The notes under the pieces were generated by a model that ran no database searches, was not told where the DNA came from, and saw only the letters and a list, made by a program, of their open reading frames with translations. Source: an uncultured Planctomycetales bacterium (GTDB lineage Bacteria; Omnitrophota; Gorgyraeia; Zapsychrales; Fredricksoniimonadaceae). From it: a stretch of 60,137 bases of DNA. A program made the position numbers and the translations under genes. The DNA is taken from positions 1 to 60,137 of the forward strand of contig CAZXSE010000007.1 in the NCBI GenBank assembly GCA_964643325.1, in the 5' to 3' direction. Below are positions 25,126 through 33,486 of the stretch, one piece after another (position 1 is the first letter of the stretch; each line of letters begins with the position of its first letter).

Positions 25126-25159
25126 TTCTTTGGGTTTGGTGCTCTTTAAGAAATGATCG

Positions 25160-25250
25160 AATGAAGTTGGCAAACTACTTGAAAGAGTAGGACGCAAAGC
25201 CACGAGCCTAACCTCACCTTCCGGTGAGCACGGTCGTCGGGTTGCCGTAA
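25160..25250 (+). promoter_or_regulatory. Cyclic di-GMP-I (GEMM) riboswitch
   Basis: GGCAAAC-TACTT-GAAA-GAGTAG-GACGCAAAGCCACGAGCCTAA...ACGGTCGTCGGGTTGCC matches the c-di-GMP-I consensus landmarks. Confidence 0.9.
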
Positions 25251-25329: not shown

Positions 25330-25578
25330 ATGTTTAAGACAATCACAGCGGTTACAGCGGCGGTCATGATCATCTCAGGAGCAGGTGCTGCCTGGGCAGA
25401 GGCAACGAGCTTCTCCATTTCGGTGACCATCCCCCCCATGATCTTCTTTGACCAGAAGGCGCTCGCGCCGGGCCAGGCGGTCCTTGATCAGCAGGGAGAT
25501 TCCCAGAAGAATATCCAACAGCAGGCTTTGGTCAGGGACAATAAGAAAGTCCTGATGACCTCTGCAGTCGTTCTGTAA
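25330..25578 (+). CDS. Small secreted protein with a pilin-type N-terminal strand (ATSFSISVTIP)
   Basis: Signal peptide ending AWA; RBS AAGGGAGG; 82 aa. Confidence 0.75.
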   Translation: MFKTITAVTAAVMIISGAGAAWAEATSFSISVTIPPMIFFDQKALAPGQAVLDQQGDSQKNIQQQALVRDNKKVLMTSAVVL

Positions 25579-25671: not shown

Positions 25672-28600
25672 TTATTCGGTGGGAGTTTTCTGCTGCATCG
25701 GGATATGAAAGACATACGTGACGCCTTCCGCCAGATCGATCTCAGTCTTGAGCTTGATCATGGGAATGAGCGCCAGCGGAACTGTTGCCATATCAATGGA
25801 AATAGTATGCTTGCCCGCATCGACCTTCTTGAAGAAATACGCGCCGCGCGCGTCCGTGAACTGGCTGGTCTTGCCATCAAGGATCAGTTTCACACGGGTG
25901 ATAAAAGTATCCCCCGGATCGGGGCGCCCGGTATCATTCCTGTCCACATAAACAACGCCAAAGATGCCCGACTGCGTGGTCAACCCGAAATCAACGCGGT
26001 CCCGCAGGCCCTGACGCACCTCCACCCGCTTGGATGACGGCGTCGAGAATGTATATCCGACGGGAAGGCCGTTCACATCAGGCGCAACGACCGCGCGTTT
26101 GGCGCGCACCTTTGCATTGTACCAGCCATTGGCATCCGTAACAGCCTGCCTGTCCCCCACCTTGACCTTAATGTCCGGCATGCCTTGATCGTCGCTATCC
26201 TGCTTGCCGTTGCCGTTCTTGTCCTTGAACACAACACCTTCGATCGTACCTTGCGGGTCCCAGGACCAGGGCGAACCCCATGCGGCGCGCATGCCCATGC
26301 GCAGATCAAGCGAGTGGTACGAAGCGTCCTCGGTCCTCTGACCCCACACATCGCGCAAGCGGCTGTCAAGAAAAAGGTCGACATCCTCGACGGGGCTGTA
26401 CACGAAAGAGGCTGAGCCTTCGACGCTGTCTTCGCCGGAAAGATAGCTGTTATTGCCCCCGTACCCGGCTTCATTCTGATAGGTCAAGCCGAAGTTCCCG
26501 TGCAGCCGTTTTGTCAACTGATGGCTATAGGAAAGGCCTGTGTTAAAGACATTGGGGTTATAATCCTCGTCCGTCTCAATATCTTCAAGCCATGAATATT
26601 CATAACTTGCCGAATAATAAAGATTCCCGACGAGAGGGATGTTGAACCCGGTCAAAAGCCCGTAACGGTCATACTCGGACTGCGGCGAGAACGCGTAGCG
26701 GCTGCTCTGATAGACGTGGCCGATATAGCCCGATCCGCTGCGGCCATTCCAGACAGGCAAGGTGCGGTGAAGCCGCATATCCGCCGAGAAATAGCGGCGG
26801 GGGGAAATATCCGCCGGCGTGTGCGTATAATATGTTCCCGTGCTCAGCGAATGCTTCTCGTCGAGCTCAATATCGACCCTGGCATTCGCATCATAATTGA
26901 ACGCGTTCGGGTCATCGGGGTTCAGGCTCAACCGGTCGCGATAAACATCAAGCGAGGCGTCTGTCTGCGCCTTGCCAACAGGCACCTGCATGGCCCACAA
27001 AGCCCCGACCTCTCCCTGATTCGACGGATATCCCGTGACCGTCGTGAACTCCTTGTTGATATCCCTCAGGTTCAGGCTCATGGTGCCCCGGCCAAAACCC
27101 CACTTCGACCCGGCCAAAGCCGCCGTGGTCTTCTCATCCTTGGCGATCTCGGCGTTGAGCCTCATCTGGTCAATGACCTGCCACCCCTCGACGGAATAAA
27201 CGCGCTTGGTCAAGGCATCATCCCGATCGGGGCCGGAACCCTGGGCATAATTGAACGCATACTGCCTGTTCTTGTCCTTGGGGAACAGGGTGATCTTCGC
27301 CGCATCAATATAGAAATCCTCTTTCCCGGAGCCGCTGCCCAGGATATAACCGAACGTGCTCCGTTTCTGCCCGCGCGTCAAGGCAAGCCCGAGATTCTCG
27401 TCAAGAAGGTTCACATCCACATACCCGCCGAACAGGGCCGTTCCCGGCAAGGTCAACGGGCTCAAGCGGCGGTTAATATCAAAAAGCCTTATATTCAGGT
27501 CTTTGGTCCCCTCGACCGGAATGCCGGTAAGCCCGACGGTATAGGACGTTACCTCGGTGATCGGATGATAACCGGTCATCGTGGCAGACCCGTCCAGAAG
27601 GCCGTAAGGGGTCTCGCCCACGGTCCCGACGCTTTGCTGATAACTGGGATGATCCCTGCGCTCCAGCCCGTCGATGCTCGGGCCATAATGATAAGAGCTC
27701 CAATCATTGGAGTAGCGGAACCTGAACGGGACCGAATGGTCCACGCCGGTATCGATCCGCGGGACGCCCACATCAGCCCGCGGAACGATCACATCAATAT
27801 AAACAGTGCTGCGCGCCGGGGCGCCTGTTGACTCGTCCCAAATATGAACAAAGGTCGATCCCCAGCGCAGGGTATCCACCTGGATCTGATCGCGCGTGAT
27901 CTTCTTGATGTTCACAACCCCTTCATCAACGATCAGGAACTTGTCGATGCTCTTGCCTTCAATAATAACAGAAGACCCCATCTCGATCTTGACCACAGCC
28001 CTGCTGCCCTGGGCCGCGTTCATGATATCATTCAGCGTGATCACATCAGGCACGGCTTTCTTGGCAAATGCCACCGAAGTCTTGGGCTTTTCAGATACGG
28101 GAACCGGTGTCTGGGCAACAACTTTGGCCGGTGCAGCCTTTGCAGGCGCTATTTTTACGGCCGTCGCTTTTGCAGGTGTCGTCTTAACGTTCACAGGCTC
28201 AGGGCTCTTGGGAAGAACGGGCTCTTTGCGAACAGCGGTCTTTTCCGGAACGACCGCCGTATCCTGCCTGATCTGCACAGTCGCCACCGGAGCCCCCTGC
28301 AAGCGCTCAAGCTGCGCCCAGGATTCAAGCAATCGAGGATCCTCAGGATCGATCAGGCGGGCTGTATTCAGGCTCTGACGCGCCGTCTCAAGGTCCTTGC
28401 GGGCCAGTGCTTCTTTGCCTTTACGCAACATCTCTTCAAAATAAGGCAATGTCACCCGCTCCATGGATACTTGCGCGGGAAGAGACTTCTTTCTGTTCGC
28501 AATAAGTTCAATATACCGGGCAGGTTCTTTCGAGGAGGGGTCTATCTGCTGGGCCCATTTAAAATAACGGGCAGCATCGTCATCCTGTTGCTTTTCAAAG

Positions 28601-28722
28601 GCTTTAGTACCTTCTTTAATACAGTATTGATAGACATTCGACGCGTCCGCGCCGGCCGAAGGGCAAGCCAACGCCGCGAATACGAGAAAAAGAAAAACTC
28701 CTGTTAAGTGCTTCATGGTCAT
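25672..28722 (-). CDS. 1016-aa usher-like outer-membrane protein: TPR-like helices, pilus-formation N-terminal-like domain, beta-barrel-like core, SdrD-B-like C-terminal domains
   Basis: Signal peptide; TPR-like ARYFKWAQQIDPSS and ARLIDPED; GSTFVHIWD segment; aromatic amphipathic strands; GTIEGVVFKDKNGNGKQD and GVVYVDRNDTGRPD. Confidence 0.65.
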   Translation of the reverse strand: MTMKHLTGVFLFLVFAALACPSAGADASNVYQYCIKEGTKAFEKQQDDDAARYFKWAQQIDPSSKEPARYIELIANRKKSLPAQVSMERVTLPYFEEMLRKGKEALARKDLETARQSLNTARLIDPEDPRLLESWAQLERLQGAPVATVQIRQDTAVVPEKTAVRKEPVLPKSPEPVNVKTTPAKATAVKIAPAKAAPAKVVAQTPVPVSEKPKTSVAFAKKAVPDVITLNDIMNAAQGSRAVVKIEMGSSVIIEGKSIDKFLIVDEGVVNIKKITRDQIQVDTLRWGSTFVHIWDESTGAPARSTVYIDVIVPRADVGVPRIDTGVDHSVPFRFRYSNDWSSYHYGPSIDGLERRDHPSYQQSVGTVGETPYGLLDGSATMTGYHPITEVTSYTVGLTGIPVEGTKDLNIRLFDINRRLSPLTLPGTALFGGYVDVNLLDENLGLALTRGQKRSTFGYILGSGSGKEDFYIDAAKITLFPKDKNRQYAFNYAQGSGPDRDDALTKRVYSVEGWQVIDQMRLNAEIAKDEKTTAALAGSKWGFGRGTMSLNLRDINKEFTTVTGYPSNQGEVGALWAMQVPVGKAQTDASLDVYRDRLSLNPDDPNAFNYDANARVDIELDEKHSLSTGTYYTHTPADISPRRYFSADMRLHRTLPVWNGRSGSGYIGHVYQSSRYAFSPQSEYDRYGLLTGFNIPLVGNLYYSASYEYSWLEDIETDEDYNPNVFNTGLSYSHQLTKRLHGNFGLTYQNEAGYGGNNSYLSGEDSVEGSASFVYSPVEDVDLFLDSRLRDVWGQRTEDASYHSLDLRMGMRAAWGSPWSWDPQGTIEGVVFKDKNGNGKQDSDDQGMPDIKVKVGDRQAVTDANGWYNAKVRAKRAVVAPDVNGLPVGYTFSTPSSKRVEVRQGLRDRVDFGLTTQSGIFGVVYVDRNDTGRPDPGDTFITRVKLILDGKTSQFTDARGAYFFKKVDAGKHTISIDMATVPLALIPMIKLKTEIDLAEGVTYVFHIPMQQKTPTE

Positions 28723-28767: not shown

Positions 28768-29574
28768 CTAGTCCCGAACGCCTGTTATGTCGGCACTTCC
28801 GGAGGCATTCTTCGTGATCTCTATTTCCTTAACAAGAACATCCCCTCCTTCAAGGTCCGCGTTAAGAACAAATGTGTATTTGCCCGCCCCCAGATCAGCG
28901 GGAAGAGCAAGCTCAAAAGGCGCCGCCTCCCCGGGCGGAACATATACTTTCTTGACCGATCCCCGGTCCTTGACGCTGCCACCATCATCCATGGCGTAAT
29001 AAGTAATATCTGCGATAAGAACAGCGTCCCCCTGGTTGACAAAGCTCCCGTTAACAACCGCGCCGTTCATTTTGAAATCCTGCATTGCGCACGACTTGTC
29101 CTTATTCTGCGACTCAATGAAGAACAGGACCCCGGTGCGCATGACGATATTGACGCCCGTCTGGTCCTGCAGAAGATCCCCTGTCTTCTCAAAGAAAAGG
29201 ACCCCGTAATGCCCGCCCTTGATATCCTGCGGCACATTGATCAGGTACTGGATCTTCTCCTTGGCAAAGCCGGCCAAGGTGACCTCTTGCGGCGTGATCC
29301 TGACCCATTCGGCCGCCGAACCCGGCATGATCCCCGCCGGAGAGAAATCCTTGGCCCCGTCGTAAGGAGCTGTGTACTTGAAATCCTCCCAATACAGACG
29401 GTATGTCTCCGTGTTCTTGGAGAGATTGTGCACCATGATCTCGCCGCTCACGCGCTCGCCGGGAGCGACCGAAATAACAAGCTTGCCGTGCTCGATCATG
29501 AGCTCCGCCGATGCCGGCGGCAGCGCGCAAAAGAATAAAGCGATCAGGGCAACAACGATCTTTTTGATCATCAT
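28768..29574 (-). CDS. PapD/DUF916-like periplasmic chaperone
   Basis: Signal peptide; VAPGERVSGEIMVHN, SAAEWVRITPQEVTL, INVP...GGHYGVLFFE; second Ig-like domain ending GKYTFVL. Confidence 0.65.
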   Translation of the reverse strand: MMIKKIVVALIALFFCALPPASAELMIEHGKLVISVAPGERVSGEIMVHNLSKNTETYRLYWEDFKYTAPYDGAKDFSPAGIMPGSAAEWVRITPQEVTLAGFAKEKIQYLINVPQDIKGGHYGVLFFEKTGDLLQDQTGVNIVMRTGVLFFIESQNKDKSCAMQDFKMNGAVVNGSFVNQGDAVLIADITYYAMDDGGSVKDRGSVKKVYVPPGEAAPFELALPADLGAGKYTFVLNADLEGGDVLVKEIEITKNASGSADITGVRD

Positions 29575-29598: not shown

Positions 29599-30963
29599 TT
29601 AATTCTGGTTCAGCGAGAACCTTATCGGCGCTTTATAGCTTCCGCTGGGAAGCCCTTTATAACCCTGGACCCTGTACACCACATTGAATTTCACCGGTGC
29701 GCCCTTTTTATTGGAAACGAACACCGGATACTCGCCGGTCTTGACCGAGACAAAGTCCGTGAACTGCGATGCGGCCTTCTCGCCTTCGACAACGCCGACC
29801 TTCATCGTGAAATACTCCGGAGACATTTCGTCGCCTTTGGCATTGCGCATCAGGGTGCTTACCTGTTGCGTGACCTGATAGGGCTTGTGCATGTTCGACC
29901 GGACCACGACCTGCACCTCTTTCTCCATCGGAGGCTGGTCAGGAAGCACCTGCGTGAAACTGATGCCTTCCGGCGGGAACACCAGGTCCATGCTGAACAC
30001 CGGCTGGATATGGACCTGCAGATCGACCTGGAATACGCTTTCTTTATCATTCGCCACGACGATATACTTCACCCGGCCCATGTAAACACCGGCCTCTTCA
30101 AGCTCAGCCAATTCCTTGGCCATGGAGAAATATACCGCGAAATCATCCTGCTGTTCCTGGCTGGAATAAACAAGAACGCGGTCTTTCTTCAGCGGCTGCG
30201 GATCACGCACGCGCAGCGCTTCAAGGACCTTGCCATCGGCAACAAACCGTACAACATCAGCGCCGATCTCCCTGCCGTCCTCACCCTGGGGCAGGAACTC
30301 GACCTCCTGATACACCTGGACCTGCTGGCCCATGTTCCCCGAGAATGTCACCTTGACCGCATCCTCAAGGCTCGCCGTGGCCCCGGAATCACGAACGATC
30401 ACACGCTCCGGCATATGCCCGCCGGAAACCATGACCTTCCAGTCTGCCGTGCTTTCCAGGGACACATTCACAAAGACCTGGGTCGGCGCGCCGCCGGCAA
30501 TAGGACGCAAGGTGAAAACGATCTTTCCCGAAAAGATCCCGCTCGTATTCAACAGGTCCGGCCTCACCGCATACGCGATCCGGAAAGAATCGCTCTCTCC
30601 GTTCTGGCCTGATGTATAAACAAGCTGTTCGCTGAAACTCAAGTTATCCGCATTCTGAAGATATAATGTGCCTGCCGCGTTGGAAGAGCTCAGCGACGCA
30701 CATTCAATGACCTGAAGATCAAGGCGCTCGCCTCTTTCATTCACGATCGGCTCAATGACCTGCTGAAAGACCTGATAACGATTGCCGTCATCATTGGAAA
30801 CGCGCAGGCGCAGCTCCTGATTGTTCGCAAGACCCGAGATCACGCGGCCAAGACGCAAGGAACCGCTGCCGTCCGTCGCGGTAACGGCCAGGGATGCAGC
30901 CTGAGCCGCTCCTGCACAAAGAACAAAAACTGCAACGGTCAATATCCTGAACATTTCTTTCAT
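29599..30963 (-). CDS. Secreted protein with three tandem pilin/Ig-like repeats
   Basis: Signal peptide; repeat ends SGIFSGKIVFTL, AGVYMGRVKYIV, SGSYKAPIRFSL; recurring YQV.Q motif. Confidence 0.6.
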   Translation of the reverse strand: MKEMFRILTVAVFVLCAGAAQAASLAVTATDGSGSLRLGRVISGLANNQELRLRVSNDDGNRYQVFQQVIEPIVNERGERLDLQVIECASLSSSNAAGTLYLQNADNLSFSEQLVYTSGQNGESDSFRIAYAVRPDLLNTSGIFSGKIVFTLRPIAGGAPTQVFVNVSLESTADWKVMVSGGHMPERVIVRDSGATASLEDAVKVTFSGNMGQQVQVYQEVEFLPQGEDGREIGADVVRFVADGKVLEALRVRDPQPLKKDRVLVYSSQEQQDDFAVYFSMAKELAELEEAGVYMGRVKYIVVANDKESVFQVDLQVHIQPVFSMDLVFPPEGISFTQVLPDQPPMEKEVQVVVRSNMHKPYQVTQQVSTLMRNAKGDEMSPEYFTMKVGVVEGEKAASQFTDFVSVKTGEYPVFVSNKKGAPVKFNVVYRVQGYKGLPSGSYKAPIRFSLNQN

Positions 30964-31148: not shown

Positions 31149-31772
31149 TTATGATACGGTCGCCGTAACGGTCAAGGTCCCGGTATACGTTCCCGCTTTA
31201 TCGGAAGATGTGAATACCTCTGTATTATCAATGCCGTCGTCCGTTTTGGTAACGATCCCCAACTGAACGCGGAACCAGACACCCGGAATGGTCGTTGATC
31301 CAACGGTAATGCCGTTCGTATCACGCAATGCCCTGGTGCCCAGGTCGGTAATCGTGGTCGTGGTCGCGTCCACATACACAAGTTTCTGCAAAGTGGCGGC
31401 CACCTTATAACCAAGGCCGTGGCCCGCTCCGTTAGGATTCGCGCCTTCCGCGTAATTGAGCTTAACGACCAGGCCTGGCAATGTCCCGCTATTCGTGACA
31501 TCAATGGCAAAGCCCTGCGACGTCTTCCAGATGCCCAAACCGAGATCATATGTCAAATTGCCAAAACCAAGCGTCGTGTCCTCCGGGGTCCACACAGTGC
31601 CCGGGTGACCGGCCGCGTCATACTGGAACGCATTCGCGTTGATCGCAATGATGGCCGTACTGGGAAGAATGGTCTTTAAGTGCCGTATGTGTTTATACGT
31701 TCCCGCCAGCGCCGGGCCGCCCGTCGCCAACAAAAAAGCCATCATCATGAATGCCGCTATGGTTCTTTTCAT
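31149..31772 (-). CDS. Pilin-like secreted subunit C
   Basis: Signal peptide; ends DKAGTYTGTLTVTATVS; close paralog of 32354-32968. Confidence 0.7.
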   Translation of the reverse strand: MKRTIAAFMMMAFLLATGGPALAGTYKHIRHLKTILPSTAIIAINANAFQYDAAGHPGTVWTPEDTTLGFGNLTYDLGLGIWKTSQGFAIDVTNSGTLPGLVVKLNYAEGANPNGAGHGLGYKVAATLQKLVYVDATTTTITDLGTRALRDTNGITVGSTTIPGVWFRVQLGIVTKTDDGIDNTEVFTSSDKAGTYTGTLTVTATVS

Positions 31773-32344
31773 TTTGTCACCACTGTTATGGTCAGTGTGC
31801 CCTGATAAGTGCCGGCATGATCCGCATTAGTGAATACCTCAGCACCGCTGACAACAGGATCCCCTGTATAGATCCCGACATACATCTTGATGTTATGATC
31901 CGATGGTCTGTCCGGGATCGTCAATCCATTAACATTCCGGATCGCCCTCGCAGGCATGATATCAACCTCGGTCGTGCCGATAATATCCTTGAACGCGATC
32001 GCTGTCTTATAACCAAGACCGTGCCCGCTATATCCAGCTGTCGTGTTAGGATTCTCTCCCTCGGTGTATTCCAATGATACATCACCGTTGAGCGTAATAT
32101 AATACCCTTTGGATGCTATCCATATCCCATACTCGGGATTGAAACTCAATGTCCCGAAGTCCCATGTCAGATCAGTGTCTTTGACAGGACCCTGGCCGAT
32201 AATGCCTTCCTCTACAACACCGCCGTTGAAAACTTCCGGAACATCGGCTGTGACGATAAAGGTCTTGGCATCACCGGCCAGAGCCTGGCCTGCCTGTGCG
32301 GCTAAGAACACCACCATGACTATGAGGTTCAGTAGCATCCTCAT
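31769..32344 (-). CDS. Pilin-like secreted subunit B
   Basis: Signal peptide, KTFIVTADVP strand, GHGLGYK motif, ends DHAGTYQGTLTITVVTK. Confidence 0.7.
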   Translation of the reverse strand: MRMLLNLIVMVVFLAAQAGQALAGDAKTFIVTADVPEVFNGGVVEEGIIGQGPVKDTDLTWDFGTLSFNPEYGIWIASKGYYITLNGDVSLEYTEGENPNTTAGYSGHGLGYKTAIAFKDIIGTTEVDIMPARAIRNVNGLTIPDRPSDHNIKMYVGIYTGDPVVSGAEVFTNADHAGTYQGTLTITVVTK

Positions 32345-32353
32345 GATGTCACC

Positions 32354-32968
32354 TTATGATACGGTCGCCGTAACGGTTAACGTACCGGTATATGTACCTG
32401 CTTTATCCGTTGATGTGAACACTTCCGTATTCGCAACACCGTCATCCGTGTTCGTCACAACACCCAGCTGGACGCGGAACCATGTTCCGGCAACCGTCGT
32501 AGATCCGACCGTGATGCCGTTGGTATCCTTCAACGCCTTGACACCCAGCGAAGTGACCGTCGTTCCGGTCGAGCTGTAAACAAGCTTCAGCAACGTAGCC
32601 GCGACCTTATAACCAAGGCCATGGCCTGCCCCGTTGGGGTTCGTGCCTTCCGCGTAATTCAGCTTGACGACCAAGCCGGCCGCGGTGCCGTTGTTCGCCG
32701 CATCGATCGCGAAACCCTGCGCTGTCTTCCAGATACCCAGACCCGGATCATACGTCAGATTACCGAAGCCAAGTGTTGTATCTTCCGCGGTCCACACAGT
32801 ACCCGGGTTACCGGCCGCGTCATACTGGAACGCATTCGCATCGATCGCAATGATAGACGCACTCGGTAACGTTGTTGAAACAACGAACGCCTTCGAATCT
32901 GCCCAGGCGCCTCCCGCCTGAACCGCCAGCACGAAGCCAGCTACTATGAAACTGATTAACTTTTTCAT
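32354..32968 (-). CDS. Pilin-like secreted subunit A (probable major subunit)
   Basis: Strong RBS CAGGAGG before ATG 32968; KAFVVSTTLP strand; ends DKAGTYTGTLTVTATVS. Confidence 0.72.
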   Translation of the reverse strand: MKKLISFIVAGFVLAVQAGGAWADSKAFVVSTTLPSASIIAIDANAFQYDAAGNPGTVWTAEDTTLGFGNLTYDPGLGIWKTAQGFAIDAANNGTAAGLVVKLNYAEGTNPNGAGHGLGYKVAATLLKLVYSSTGTTVTSLGVKALKDTNGITVGSTTVAGTWFRVQLGVVTNTDDGVANTEVFTSTDKAGTYTGTLTVTATVS

Positions 32969-33486
32969 AACTACCTCCTGTTTTATTAACATTTTTGTTT
33001 TTCCTGGTTTGTACCTTTAAAATATAGCTTCAAAGCTAAAGATCGAGCTTTGTGAATTAGGGTGGCATCGCAGCATCGAAAATACCCGAAATCTGACTGG
33101 AATGCCGTATTGGTTATGCTATGACAACAGTAGATGGCACAAACATAACACACATGTCAAGGAATGACAAGGGCTACACAACCCCATTTTGGAAGTGTGA
33201 ATCATACCATAAAGGTGGAAGTTGTTGCAAGTACTTTAATTAGGGACAAAATAGCTGCGTTTCCCCGACGCAGAATATTTTTATAATAAACACCTGCTTT
33301 CCCTAATATAGCCAAATAGCTTTCCAGGGGCGTTTTACCCTGCCCAACCTATTGCGGTTGGTCATCCCCATATGCACTACATATAGTTCATCGTTTCTGG
33401 ACGAAAAAGGCTCTCTGGAACATATAAACAGCCCCCTGCAGCTATTGAGGCCACAGAGGGCTGTCAAGACTCTTCAAAGCACGATC

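Follow-up and report, generated by a model that had tools for sequence, protein, structure and literature searches.

Does a bacterium without any recognizable fimbrial usher gene nevertheless build surface fibres through an usher-like pore? This question is raised by a 60,137-nucleotide stretch of DNA (hereafter the window; contig CAZXSE010000007.1 of assembly GCA_964643325.1) from an uncultured Planctomycetales bacterium that GTDB places in the phylum Omnitrophota, and in particular by its gene P0001. A preliminary description, made from the sequence alone, had called the product of this gene usher-like and proposed that it is a hybrid between secretin-type periplasmic modules and an usher-type barrel. 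Chaperone-usher pili are the textbook case of ATP-independent fibre assembly, and nearly all known examples come from Proteobacteria and a small number of further phyla. Omnitrophota are regarded as ultra-small bacteria dependent on hosts or prey. Based on our analysis, we consider it likely that the product of P0001 (hereafter the pore) is the outer-membrane assembly or secretion pore of a chaperone-dependent surface-fibre system, in other words, an analogue of ushers. The pore is probably also a very remote homologue of ushers, although our confidence in true common ancestry is somewhat lower than in the role of the protein. The system as a whole is most likely an undescribed and very divergent chaperone-usher-type surface-fibre system of Omnitrophota.

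Architecture of the pore protein

The open reading frame occupies exactly positions 25672-28722 of the minus strand, as originally described, and all the parts attributed to its product are present. From the N- to the C-terminus, the gene is organized as follows:

25672..28722, minus strand: whole gene P0001, usher-like outer-membrane protein of 1016 amino acids (open reading frame and translation)
28642..28722, minus strand: signal peptide, approximately residues 1-27, read from the sequence, with probable cleavage between AGA and DAS
28300..28641, minus strand: helical region resembling tetratricopeptide repeats (TPR), residues 28-141 (AlphaFold2 helices, Pfam TPR models)
28051..28290, minus strand: disordered linker rich in V, A, P and K, residues 145-224 (predicted local distance difference test score, pLDDT, <50)
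27787..28047, minus strand: periplasmic all-beta N-domain of the PF13629 family, residues 226-312 (AlphaFold2, Pfam)
26275..27723, minus strand: transmembrane beta-barrel with 26 predicted strands, residues 334-816 (DSSP on the AlphaFold2 model)
25978..26253, minus strand: C-terminal beta-sandwich 1, residues 824-915 (SdrD_B, at the position of usher C-terminal domain 1, CTD1)
25690..25977, minus strand: C-terminal beta-sandwich 2, residues 916-1011 (SdrD_B/CarboxypepD_reg-like, at the usher CTD2 position)

The AlphaFold2 model, built from a 24-sequence alignment, has a mean pLDDT of 81.9, and most of the 10-residue blocks in the barrel exceed 90. As read from the sequence, the signal peptide consists of a K/H n-region and the hydrophobic core GVFLFLVFAALA. 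We also considered whether ALAC in the signal peptide makes the pore a lipoprotein and rejected this idea: the Cys is not conserved in the family consensus, so the pore is probably not a lipoprotein. The same architecture is found in more than 120 full-length clusters (50% identity) among the top 150 matches of an exhaustive search, which puts it far beyond chance. Across the family, column conservation is highest in the C-terminal domains (0.49-0.52) and lowest in the TPR region (0.22) and the linker (0.12).

Relationship to fimbrial ushers

When the whole pore model was compared with the PDB using Foldseek, ranks 1-14 were all occupied by FimD or PapC ushers, either alone or within assembly complexes, with E-values from 7.7e-19 to 1.2e-9. 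The alignments spanned 740-948 columns for whole-usher chains and 563 columns for the barrel-only PapC structure (2vqi). The next classes of matches were MtrB (E 5.3e-9) and TonB-dependent transporters (approximately 1e-8).

A relationship to ushers is also suggested by profile comparison. A profile of 135 pore family members, built from an exhaustive search of representatives, was aligned by HHalign with an alignment of the nine E. coli K-12 ushers, resulting in 91.3% probability and a score of 68.5. In the controls, reversed profiles reached 2.7% and 11.9%, the eight K-12 TonB-dependent transporters 2.8% and LptD 0.7%. The alignment is colinear and pairs pore residues 643-968 with residues 525-838 of the FimD precursor. 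Pore residues 643-823 correspond to the final strands of the FimD barrel, the end of the pore barrel at about residue 823 meeting FimD residue 705; residues 828-901 of sandwich 1 pair with FimD 706-780, including the TDxxG[WY] motif, and residues 915-966 of sandwich 2 with FimD 791-836. These boundaries agree within a few residues with those of the FimD barrel, CTD1 and CTD2 that Phan et al. reportedly gave in 2011 (45-residue signal peptide). In the CTD1 region, the pore reads G-V-K-V-K-V-G...T-D-x-x-G-W-Y...V-x-x-D...L-P and FimD reads G-A-K-D-A-K-V...T-D-W-R-G-Y...V-A-L-D...L-A. We regard the HHalign signal as moderate evidence for very remote homology to ushers, concentrated in the C-terminal third of the protein, and not as proof.

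As in ushers, the pore ends with two beta-sandwiches, predicted to be periplasmic, and their sequence family is SdrD_B. The SdrD_B model matches the pore in two stretches above the cut-off (E 1.5e-11), and it matches all 24 homologs as well. Each sandwich carries a Ca-loop motif, DKNGNG from D834 in sandwich 1 and DRNDTG from D927 in sandwich 2, with D834, D927 and N929 invariant in the 24-sequence alignment. The strands of sandwich 2 in the AlphaFold2 model cover residues 919-1011. Since the SdrD_B domains are located exactly at the usher CTD1 and CTD2 positions, the overall plan of the pore is simply that of an usher.

A predicted 26-strand barrel without a plug

The barrel itself (residues 334-816) has no Pfam match. 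In the AlphaFold2 model, it comprises 26 DSSP strands of 9-16 residues each, and all 26 are amphipathic, with alternating hydrophobic positions, across the 135 family members. Very short connections of 2-6 residues (periplasmic turns) alternate with longer ones of 4-15 residues (outer loops), which is the usual signature of outer-membrane barrels. With an even number of strands, both the N- and the C-terminal domains would be periplasmic. Conservation hardly differs between the predicted outer loops (0.44) and the strands (0.45).

Classical ushers have a plug of about 75-85 residues between barrel strands 6 and 7 (PapC 2vqi, FimD 3rfz). The pore family has no such insertion. There are no inter-strand gaps longer than 15 residues in the pore of the window and none longer than 21 alignment columns in the 135 members, and the length of the barrel stays between 456 and 493 residues (480-489 in 126 of the 135). 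Given such short gaps and the nearly constant barrel length, a plug of about 80 residues is absent from the whole family.

The global HHalign alignment puts the FimD plug opposite strands 7-9 of the pore. The idea that these strands form a mini-plug hairpin, leaving 24 strands in the wall, is unsupported, as they are amphipathic like the other strands. Going by the model, a hairpin folded into the lumen, with 24 wall strands remaining, may nonetheless be considered as an alternative to 26. Mean-field direct coupling analysis of the 135 sequences, applied to barrel closure and the pairing of strands, mostly picked up artefacts of gaps and indels at the turns and was discarded.

N-terminal modules

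The TPR-like region contains six helices in the AlphaFold2 model (residues 27-43, 47-60, 66-80, 93-107, 111-124 and 129-141). Pfam TPR matches are weak for the pore of the window (TPR_14, E 0.035), and TPR_1 or TPR_2 is significant in several homologs. Within the family, no other ordered part varies as much as this region: 120 of the 135 members align over the first repeat pair and 31 over the second. The linker that follows contains the string TTPAKATAVKIAPAKAAPAK quoted in the preliminary description and is composed largely of four residue types (V15, A15, P12 and K12 among 80 residues).

The N-domain (residues 226-312) is an all-beta domain with seven strands in the model, placed in the same way as the usher N-terminal domain (NTD). 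PF13629 (T2SS-T3SS_pil_N) covers its residues 242-307, scoring 20.4 bits in hmmscan, under the 23-bit cut-off, and 25.4 bits in a six-frame search of the genome, over the cut-off; 20 of the 24 homologs match this family as well (best E 5.5e-9). Comparison with the usher NTD gave only 0.2% in HHalign, and a PDB sequence search with the N-domain alone returned nothing relevant. The motif G-x-T-x-h-x-IWD is common to the N-domain and the Tad-type secretin encoded in the same genome. Identity between the two N-domains is only 27% over 45 residues, which argues for an old shared module and not for a recent fusion. According to Pfam scans, the secretin domain PF00263 is absent from the pore and its 24 homologs. 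The true secretins of the genome are encoded away from the pore locus; the Tad-type one, with both PF13629 and Secretin domains, lies in a 625-amino-acid frame on another contig (C13, 17983-19053, plus strand). In total, there are six secretin-domain matches in the 1.38-Mb genome, which is many for a genome of this size.

Taken together, these results uphold most of the preliminary description. Its long aromatic beta-strand region corresponds to the 26 amphipathic strands of residues 334-816, and a count of the strands and a search for a plug, which it proposed as checks, yielded about 26 strands and no plug domain. Its two TPR-like helical segments, its Pro/Ala/Lys linker, predicted here to be disordered, its pilus-formation N-terminal domain known from Tad and type II secretion system (T2SS) secretins, and its two SdrD-B/Cna-like repeats with Ca-loop motifs could all be recognized. 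The term 'usher-like' is supported by the 14 best PDB matches, the colinear profile alignment with its clean controls, and the gene context described below. The protein is indeed composite in build, and the term 'secretin-type' holds for the family of its N-domain; as a description of the whole, however, 'hybrid' is overstated, because the protein follows the usher plan, its N-domain is distant from that of the secretin and it has no secretin domain.

A conserved operon

The pore gene is the last member of a gene group that includes a chaperone-like protein and small secreted proteins. The features surrounding it are:

28768..29574, minus strand: periplasmic protein of 268 amino acids with two immunoglobulin-like domains and a chaperone fold (AlphaFold2, Foldseek)
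29599..30963, minus strand: secreted protein of 454 amino acids with three internal repeats (self-HHalign)
31149..32992, minus strand: three paralogous secreted subunit genes, for 212, 191 and 207 amino acids (translations)
25159-25249, plus strand: cyclic di-GMP (c-di-GMP-I) riboswitch RF01051, 75 bits, adjoining the operon
25330-25578, plus strand: small open reading frame behind the riboswitch, convergent with the pore gene

In all related loci whose upstream flank is long enough, homologs of the 454-residue protein, of a subunit of about 205 residues and of the chaperone-like protein of about 267 residues are encoded ahead of the pore gene on its strand. The order of genes is triple-repeat protein, subunit, chaperone-like protein and pore, with the chaperone-like gene directly upstream of the pore gene in each of these loci.

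The 268-residue protein was modelled from a 20-sequence alignment with a pLDDT of 92.4 and consists of two beta domains. Its top Foldseek match is WxLIP of Enterococcus (E 7e-13), followed by CfaA (target-normalized template modelling score, TM-score, 0.62), FimC, Caf1M, PapD, SafB, CsuC, YadV and DraB, and most of the top 50 matches are donor-strand chaperones. WxLIP-type DUF916-DUF3324 proteins have been reported as membrane-anchored donor-strand-exchange chaperones of a Gram-positive pilus that are sequence-disjoint from PapD (bioRxiv 10.64898/2026.10.17.759780). Consequently, both groups of fold matches of the 268-residue protein are donor-strand chaperones. In PDB sequence searches, its profile had a single match, the fimbrial chaperone EcpB, at an E-value of 0.085, below the significance threshold. 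The protein also has an invariant Lys31 (position 8 of the predicted mature chain), which may parallel the invariant Arg8 of PapD, the anchor of the subunit C-terminus.

The three repeats of the 454-residue protein are about 145 residues long, and the shifted copies align with 99.3% and 97.7% probability in self-HHalign. The subunits have a signal peptide, an N-terminal strand of alternating hydrophobic residues and a C-terminal strand AGTYxGTLT[VI]T (G-x-Y-x-G-x-L-x-V), which may be likened to that of Csu/SCPU-type subunits. The end of the second repeat of the 454-residue protein weakly matches this C-terminal strand. Neither Pfam nor NCBIfam offered a usable match for the subunits, the 454-residue protein or the 268-residue protein; weak matches to BasC, VapA S-layer and Fn3 among the neighbours were judged to be noise.

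One or more subunit homologs are found in nearly every related locus. In the genome of the window, the three subunit paralogs are arranged in tandem upstream of the 454-residue protein gene, and most related loci have a single subunit gene between the 454-residue protein and chaperone genes. A divergent branch (L030, P0025 and P0026), with 24-27% identity to the pore of the window, keeps the chaperone-like gene and a weak homolog of the 454-residue protein, and has no detectable small-subunit homolog. In one relative (L001, 3-2678; also the 53-kb contig of P0004), the module is directly preceded by genes for a 1791-residue protein with a weak YadA_head match and a 367-residue protein with a faint Laminin_G_3 match, which may be adhesin cargo or tip components.

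The riboswitch next to the operon fits a role in adhesion or biofilm formation. Small convergent or downstream genes flank the pore gene also in the related loci L001 and L002/L003.

Evidence against the proposed role and alternative explanations

A number of observations weigh against an usher-like role and ancestry of the pore. The TM-scores of the Foldseek matches are low (0.26-0.47; 0.44-0.47, target-normalized, for isolated usher barrels), and the E-values are helped by the generic beta-sandwich domains. A whole-length match to known ushers, which the preliminary description regarded as incompatible with an unusual composite protein, thus exists at the level of fold and not at that of sequence family. 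The Pfam models Usher (PF00577), PapC_N (PF13954) and PapC_C (PF13953) remained unmatched in the pore (E up to 1), in its 24 homologs (E up to 0.01) and in the whole genome. A PDB search with the 24-member profile found no usher, and one with the single protein found nothing relevant. Likewise, the HHalign probability against the K-12 ushers was only 8.7% with the 24-member profile, single usher sequences as targets gave no signal, and domain by domain the NTD, barrel, CTD1 and CTD2 were all weak, the best being CTD1 at 33%. Of two defining usher features, the plug is not found in the pore and a barrel of 24 strands is not what its model predicts, and the figure of 26 strands is a count of DSSP elements combined with amphipathicity, not a geometric count. 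As for the chaperone, the family of the 268-residue protein reached 6% in HHalign against the E. coli K-12 chaperones, which is not significant, and PapD chaperone models matched nothing in this protein or in the genome; the profile search of the genome revealed neither a canonical usher nor a PapD gene.

If the pore does not conduct a fibre, the main rival explanation is that it forms a static sheath: a 26-strand barrel permanently housing a partner, as in MtrB/MtrA and LptD/LptE, with the 454-residue protein inside as a fixed surface-exposed receptor or anchor and no polymerizing fibre at all. With 26 predicted strands and no plug, the pore does resemble the partner-filled MtrB and LptD, MtrB is its best non-usher fold match and has the lowest root-mean-square deviation (13.1), and the 454-residue protein is strictly co-conserved with the pore. 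However, Foldseek favours ushers by about ten orders of magnitude, and the HHalign signal is specific to ushers, as the LptD control indicates. Moreover, neither a chaperone-shaped partner nor multiplied pilin-like subunit genes would be expected for a sheath, and there are no CxxCH haem motifs in the neighbouring proteins, including the 454-residue one. We therefore consider a static sheath unlikely, though its probability is not negligible.

What the operon contains and how the fold matches rank speak against each of the other three explanations that we considered. According to the first of them, the pore serves the Tad or type IV pilus machinery as an accessory outer-membrane component that was recruited by way of a shared domain, PF13629, which is how the proposed 'hybrid' would read from the secretin side. 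The domain is real and occurs also in the Tad-type secretin of the genome, which has several secretin genes. Nonetheless, the pore lacks a secretin domain and has a monomer-type barrel with usher-like C-terminal domains, and in the loci that we read its gene is never found beside tad or pil genes and always belongs to the four-gene module, so that an accessory role in these machineries seems very improbable. Similarly slim are the chances that the pore is a large channel for uptake, either general or substrate-specific, that is related to TonB-dependent transporters or big porins, lacks a plug and has no functional connection to its neighbours. Both TonB-dependent transporters and porins are among the fold matches at E-values of about 1e-8, but such a channel would not explain the strict operon linkage, the pore has neither a TonB box nor a plug, the transporters are not favoured by HHalign, and a 26-strand pore would do harm if it were open and unoccupied. 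Finally, an exopolysaccharide exporter with a TPR-plus-barrel build like PgaA, BcsC or AlgK/AlgE, which the N-terminal TPR-like helices followed by a barrel bring to mind and with which c-di-GMP control would agree, being common in such systems, is the least probable of all, since genes for a glycosyltransferase, a synthase or polysaccharide modification are missing from the conserved module, the TPR region is the least conserved ordered region and lacks the second repeat pair in most members, the top 50 fold matches include no exporter of this kind, and the barrels of such exporters have 16-18 strands, with no sandwich domains at the C-terminus.

Distribution and previous descriptions

A word-indexed search revealed 26 full-length relatives of the pore, all of them either unnamed or annotated as 'pilus assembly protein N-terminal domain-containing protein'; besides this label, members of the family are known only as hypothetical. 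Among species-representative genomes, we identified 26 loci, nearly all labelled Omnitrophota, with three labelled uncultured Planctomycetales and one Elulimicrobium. Within the phylum Omnitrophota, the family is present in 54 of the 301 sampled genomes (53 of the 247 high-quality ones), nearly always as one copy per genome and with very few occurrences outside the class to which the window belongs. The 1.38-Mb genome of the window itself is about 90% complete.

We found no description of the family in the literature on chaperone-usher systems of Omnitrophota and Planctomycetota, on PF13629 or on 26-stranded ushers. The main survey of Omnitrophota genomes names type IV and Tad pili and giant adhesins as the sole means of attachment, treats giant open reading frames as well, and does not treat ushers or fimbriae (PMC10066038).

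Proposed mechanism and its implications

If the pore is indeed an usher-like assembly pore, the system might work as follows. The subunits of about 200 residues and the triple-repeat 454-residue protein would be exported by Sec. In the periplasm, the two-domain chaperone of 268 residues would hold both by donor-strand complementation and deliver them to the PF13629-type N-domain of the pore, from which they would be handed over to the two Ca-binding beta-sandwiches at the CTD1 and CTD2 sites. Strand exchange would then polymerize them, and they would pass out through the monomeric barrel with no need for ATP. The TPR module, carried on its long flexible linker, may serve as a tether between the pore and either peptidoglycan or a partner in the inner membrane. 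With no plug inserted, gating must be achieved otherwise, perhaps through a resident partner or through the fibre. As in the MtrB/MtrA and LptD/LptE pairs, the barrel may be permanently occupied, either by the triple-repeat protein or by the base of the fibre.

A bolder version of this scheme is also conceivable. The pore might be a true but extremely diverged usher homologue with a 26-strand barrel that either never had a plug or has lost it. Together with its chaperone, it might then represent a third sequence-disjoint branch of donor-strand exchange, after the classical chaperone-usher and WxL/Elr systems, in the ultra-small Omnitrophota. Gating in this branch might rely on a resident partner or on the peptide gene behind the c-di-GMP riboswitch. 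We put this forward tentatively and would not be surprised to see it fail, at least in part.

Should the usher-like role be correct, the same assembly logic would operate in a barrel that is wider and has no plug, together with an N-domain of the secretin type and C-terminal domains that bind Ca, and the comparison would separate the indispensable usher features from those peculiar to a lineage. The origin of the chaperone-usher pathway would be pushed deeper, and Omnitrophota would gain a candidate for an additional attachment organelle. New in this work are the family-wide absence of the plug, the 26 amphipathic strands, the controlled HHalign mapping onto the FimD domain boundaries and the frequency of the family in the phylum.

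Comparison with known systems

With the Tad secretins CpaC and RcpA, the pore has in common the PF13629 N-terminal domain. However, these proteins form an oligomeric secretin channel, whereas the pore has a monomer-type amphipathic barrel and no secretin domain. The resemblance to MtrB/PioB and LptD is in the barrel, which has 26 strands (predicted for the pore) and no built-in plug domain in either case. On the other hand, the pore has no Pfam match to these families and its HHalign probability against LptD is negligible, it has no cytochrome or LptE-like partner, and the barrels of MtrB/PioB and LptD lack usher-like N- and C-terminal domains.

The WxL/Elr pilus of Bacillota is related through its chaperone (ElrE/WxLIP): WxLIP is the top fold match of the 268-residue protein and represents another donor-strand chaperone family that is sequence-disjoint from PapD. 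Unlike the Omnitrophota system, the WxL/Elr pilus is Gram-positive, with a membrane-anchored chaperone, sortase anchoring, no outer-membrane pore and thus no counterpart of the pore. Among the alternative and archaic systems (CFA/I CfaA-C, ECP EcpB-C and Csu CsuC-D), CfaA is structurally the nearest periplasmic chaperone to the 268-residue protein, and EcpB is its only PDB sequence match. Components of these systems, however, match the Pfam Usher and PapD models, whereas those of the Omnitrophota system do not.

Compared with FimD and PapC, the pore is not matched by the usher Pfam models, has about 26 predicted strands instead of 24, lacks the plug, carries a PF13629 N-domain in place of PapC_N and Ca-loop SdrD_B-type C-terminal domains, and is extended by an N-terminal TPR module and an 80-residue disordered linker; it is also found in Omnitrophota instead of Proteobacteria. 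At the same time, it follows the same predicted plan, in which a periplasmic N-domain leads into a large monomeric barrel with two beta-sandwiches behind it, and its sandwich 1 has the TDxxG[WY]...D...LP motif in common with FimD CTD1. Ushers provide both its best fold matches and a colinear profile match that runs from the final strands of the barrel through the C-terminal domains, and, just as with FimD and PapC, its gene is located directly downstream of a gene for a protein with the chaperone fold, in an operon with small secreted subunits.

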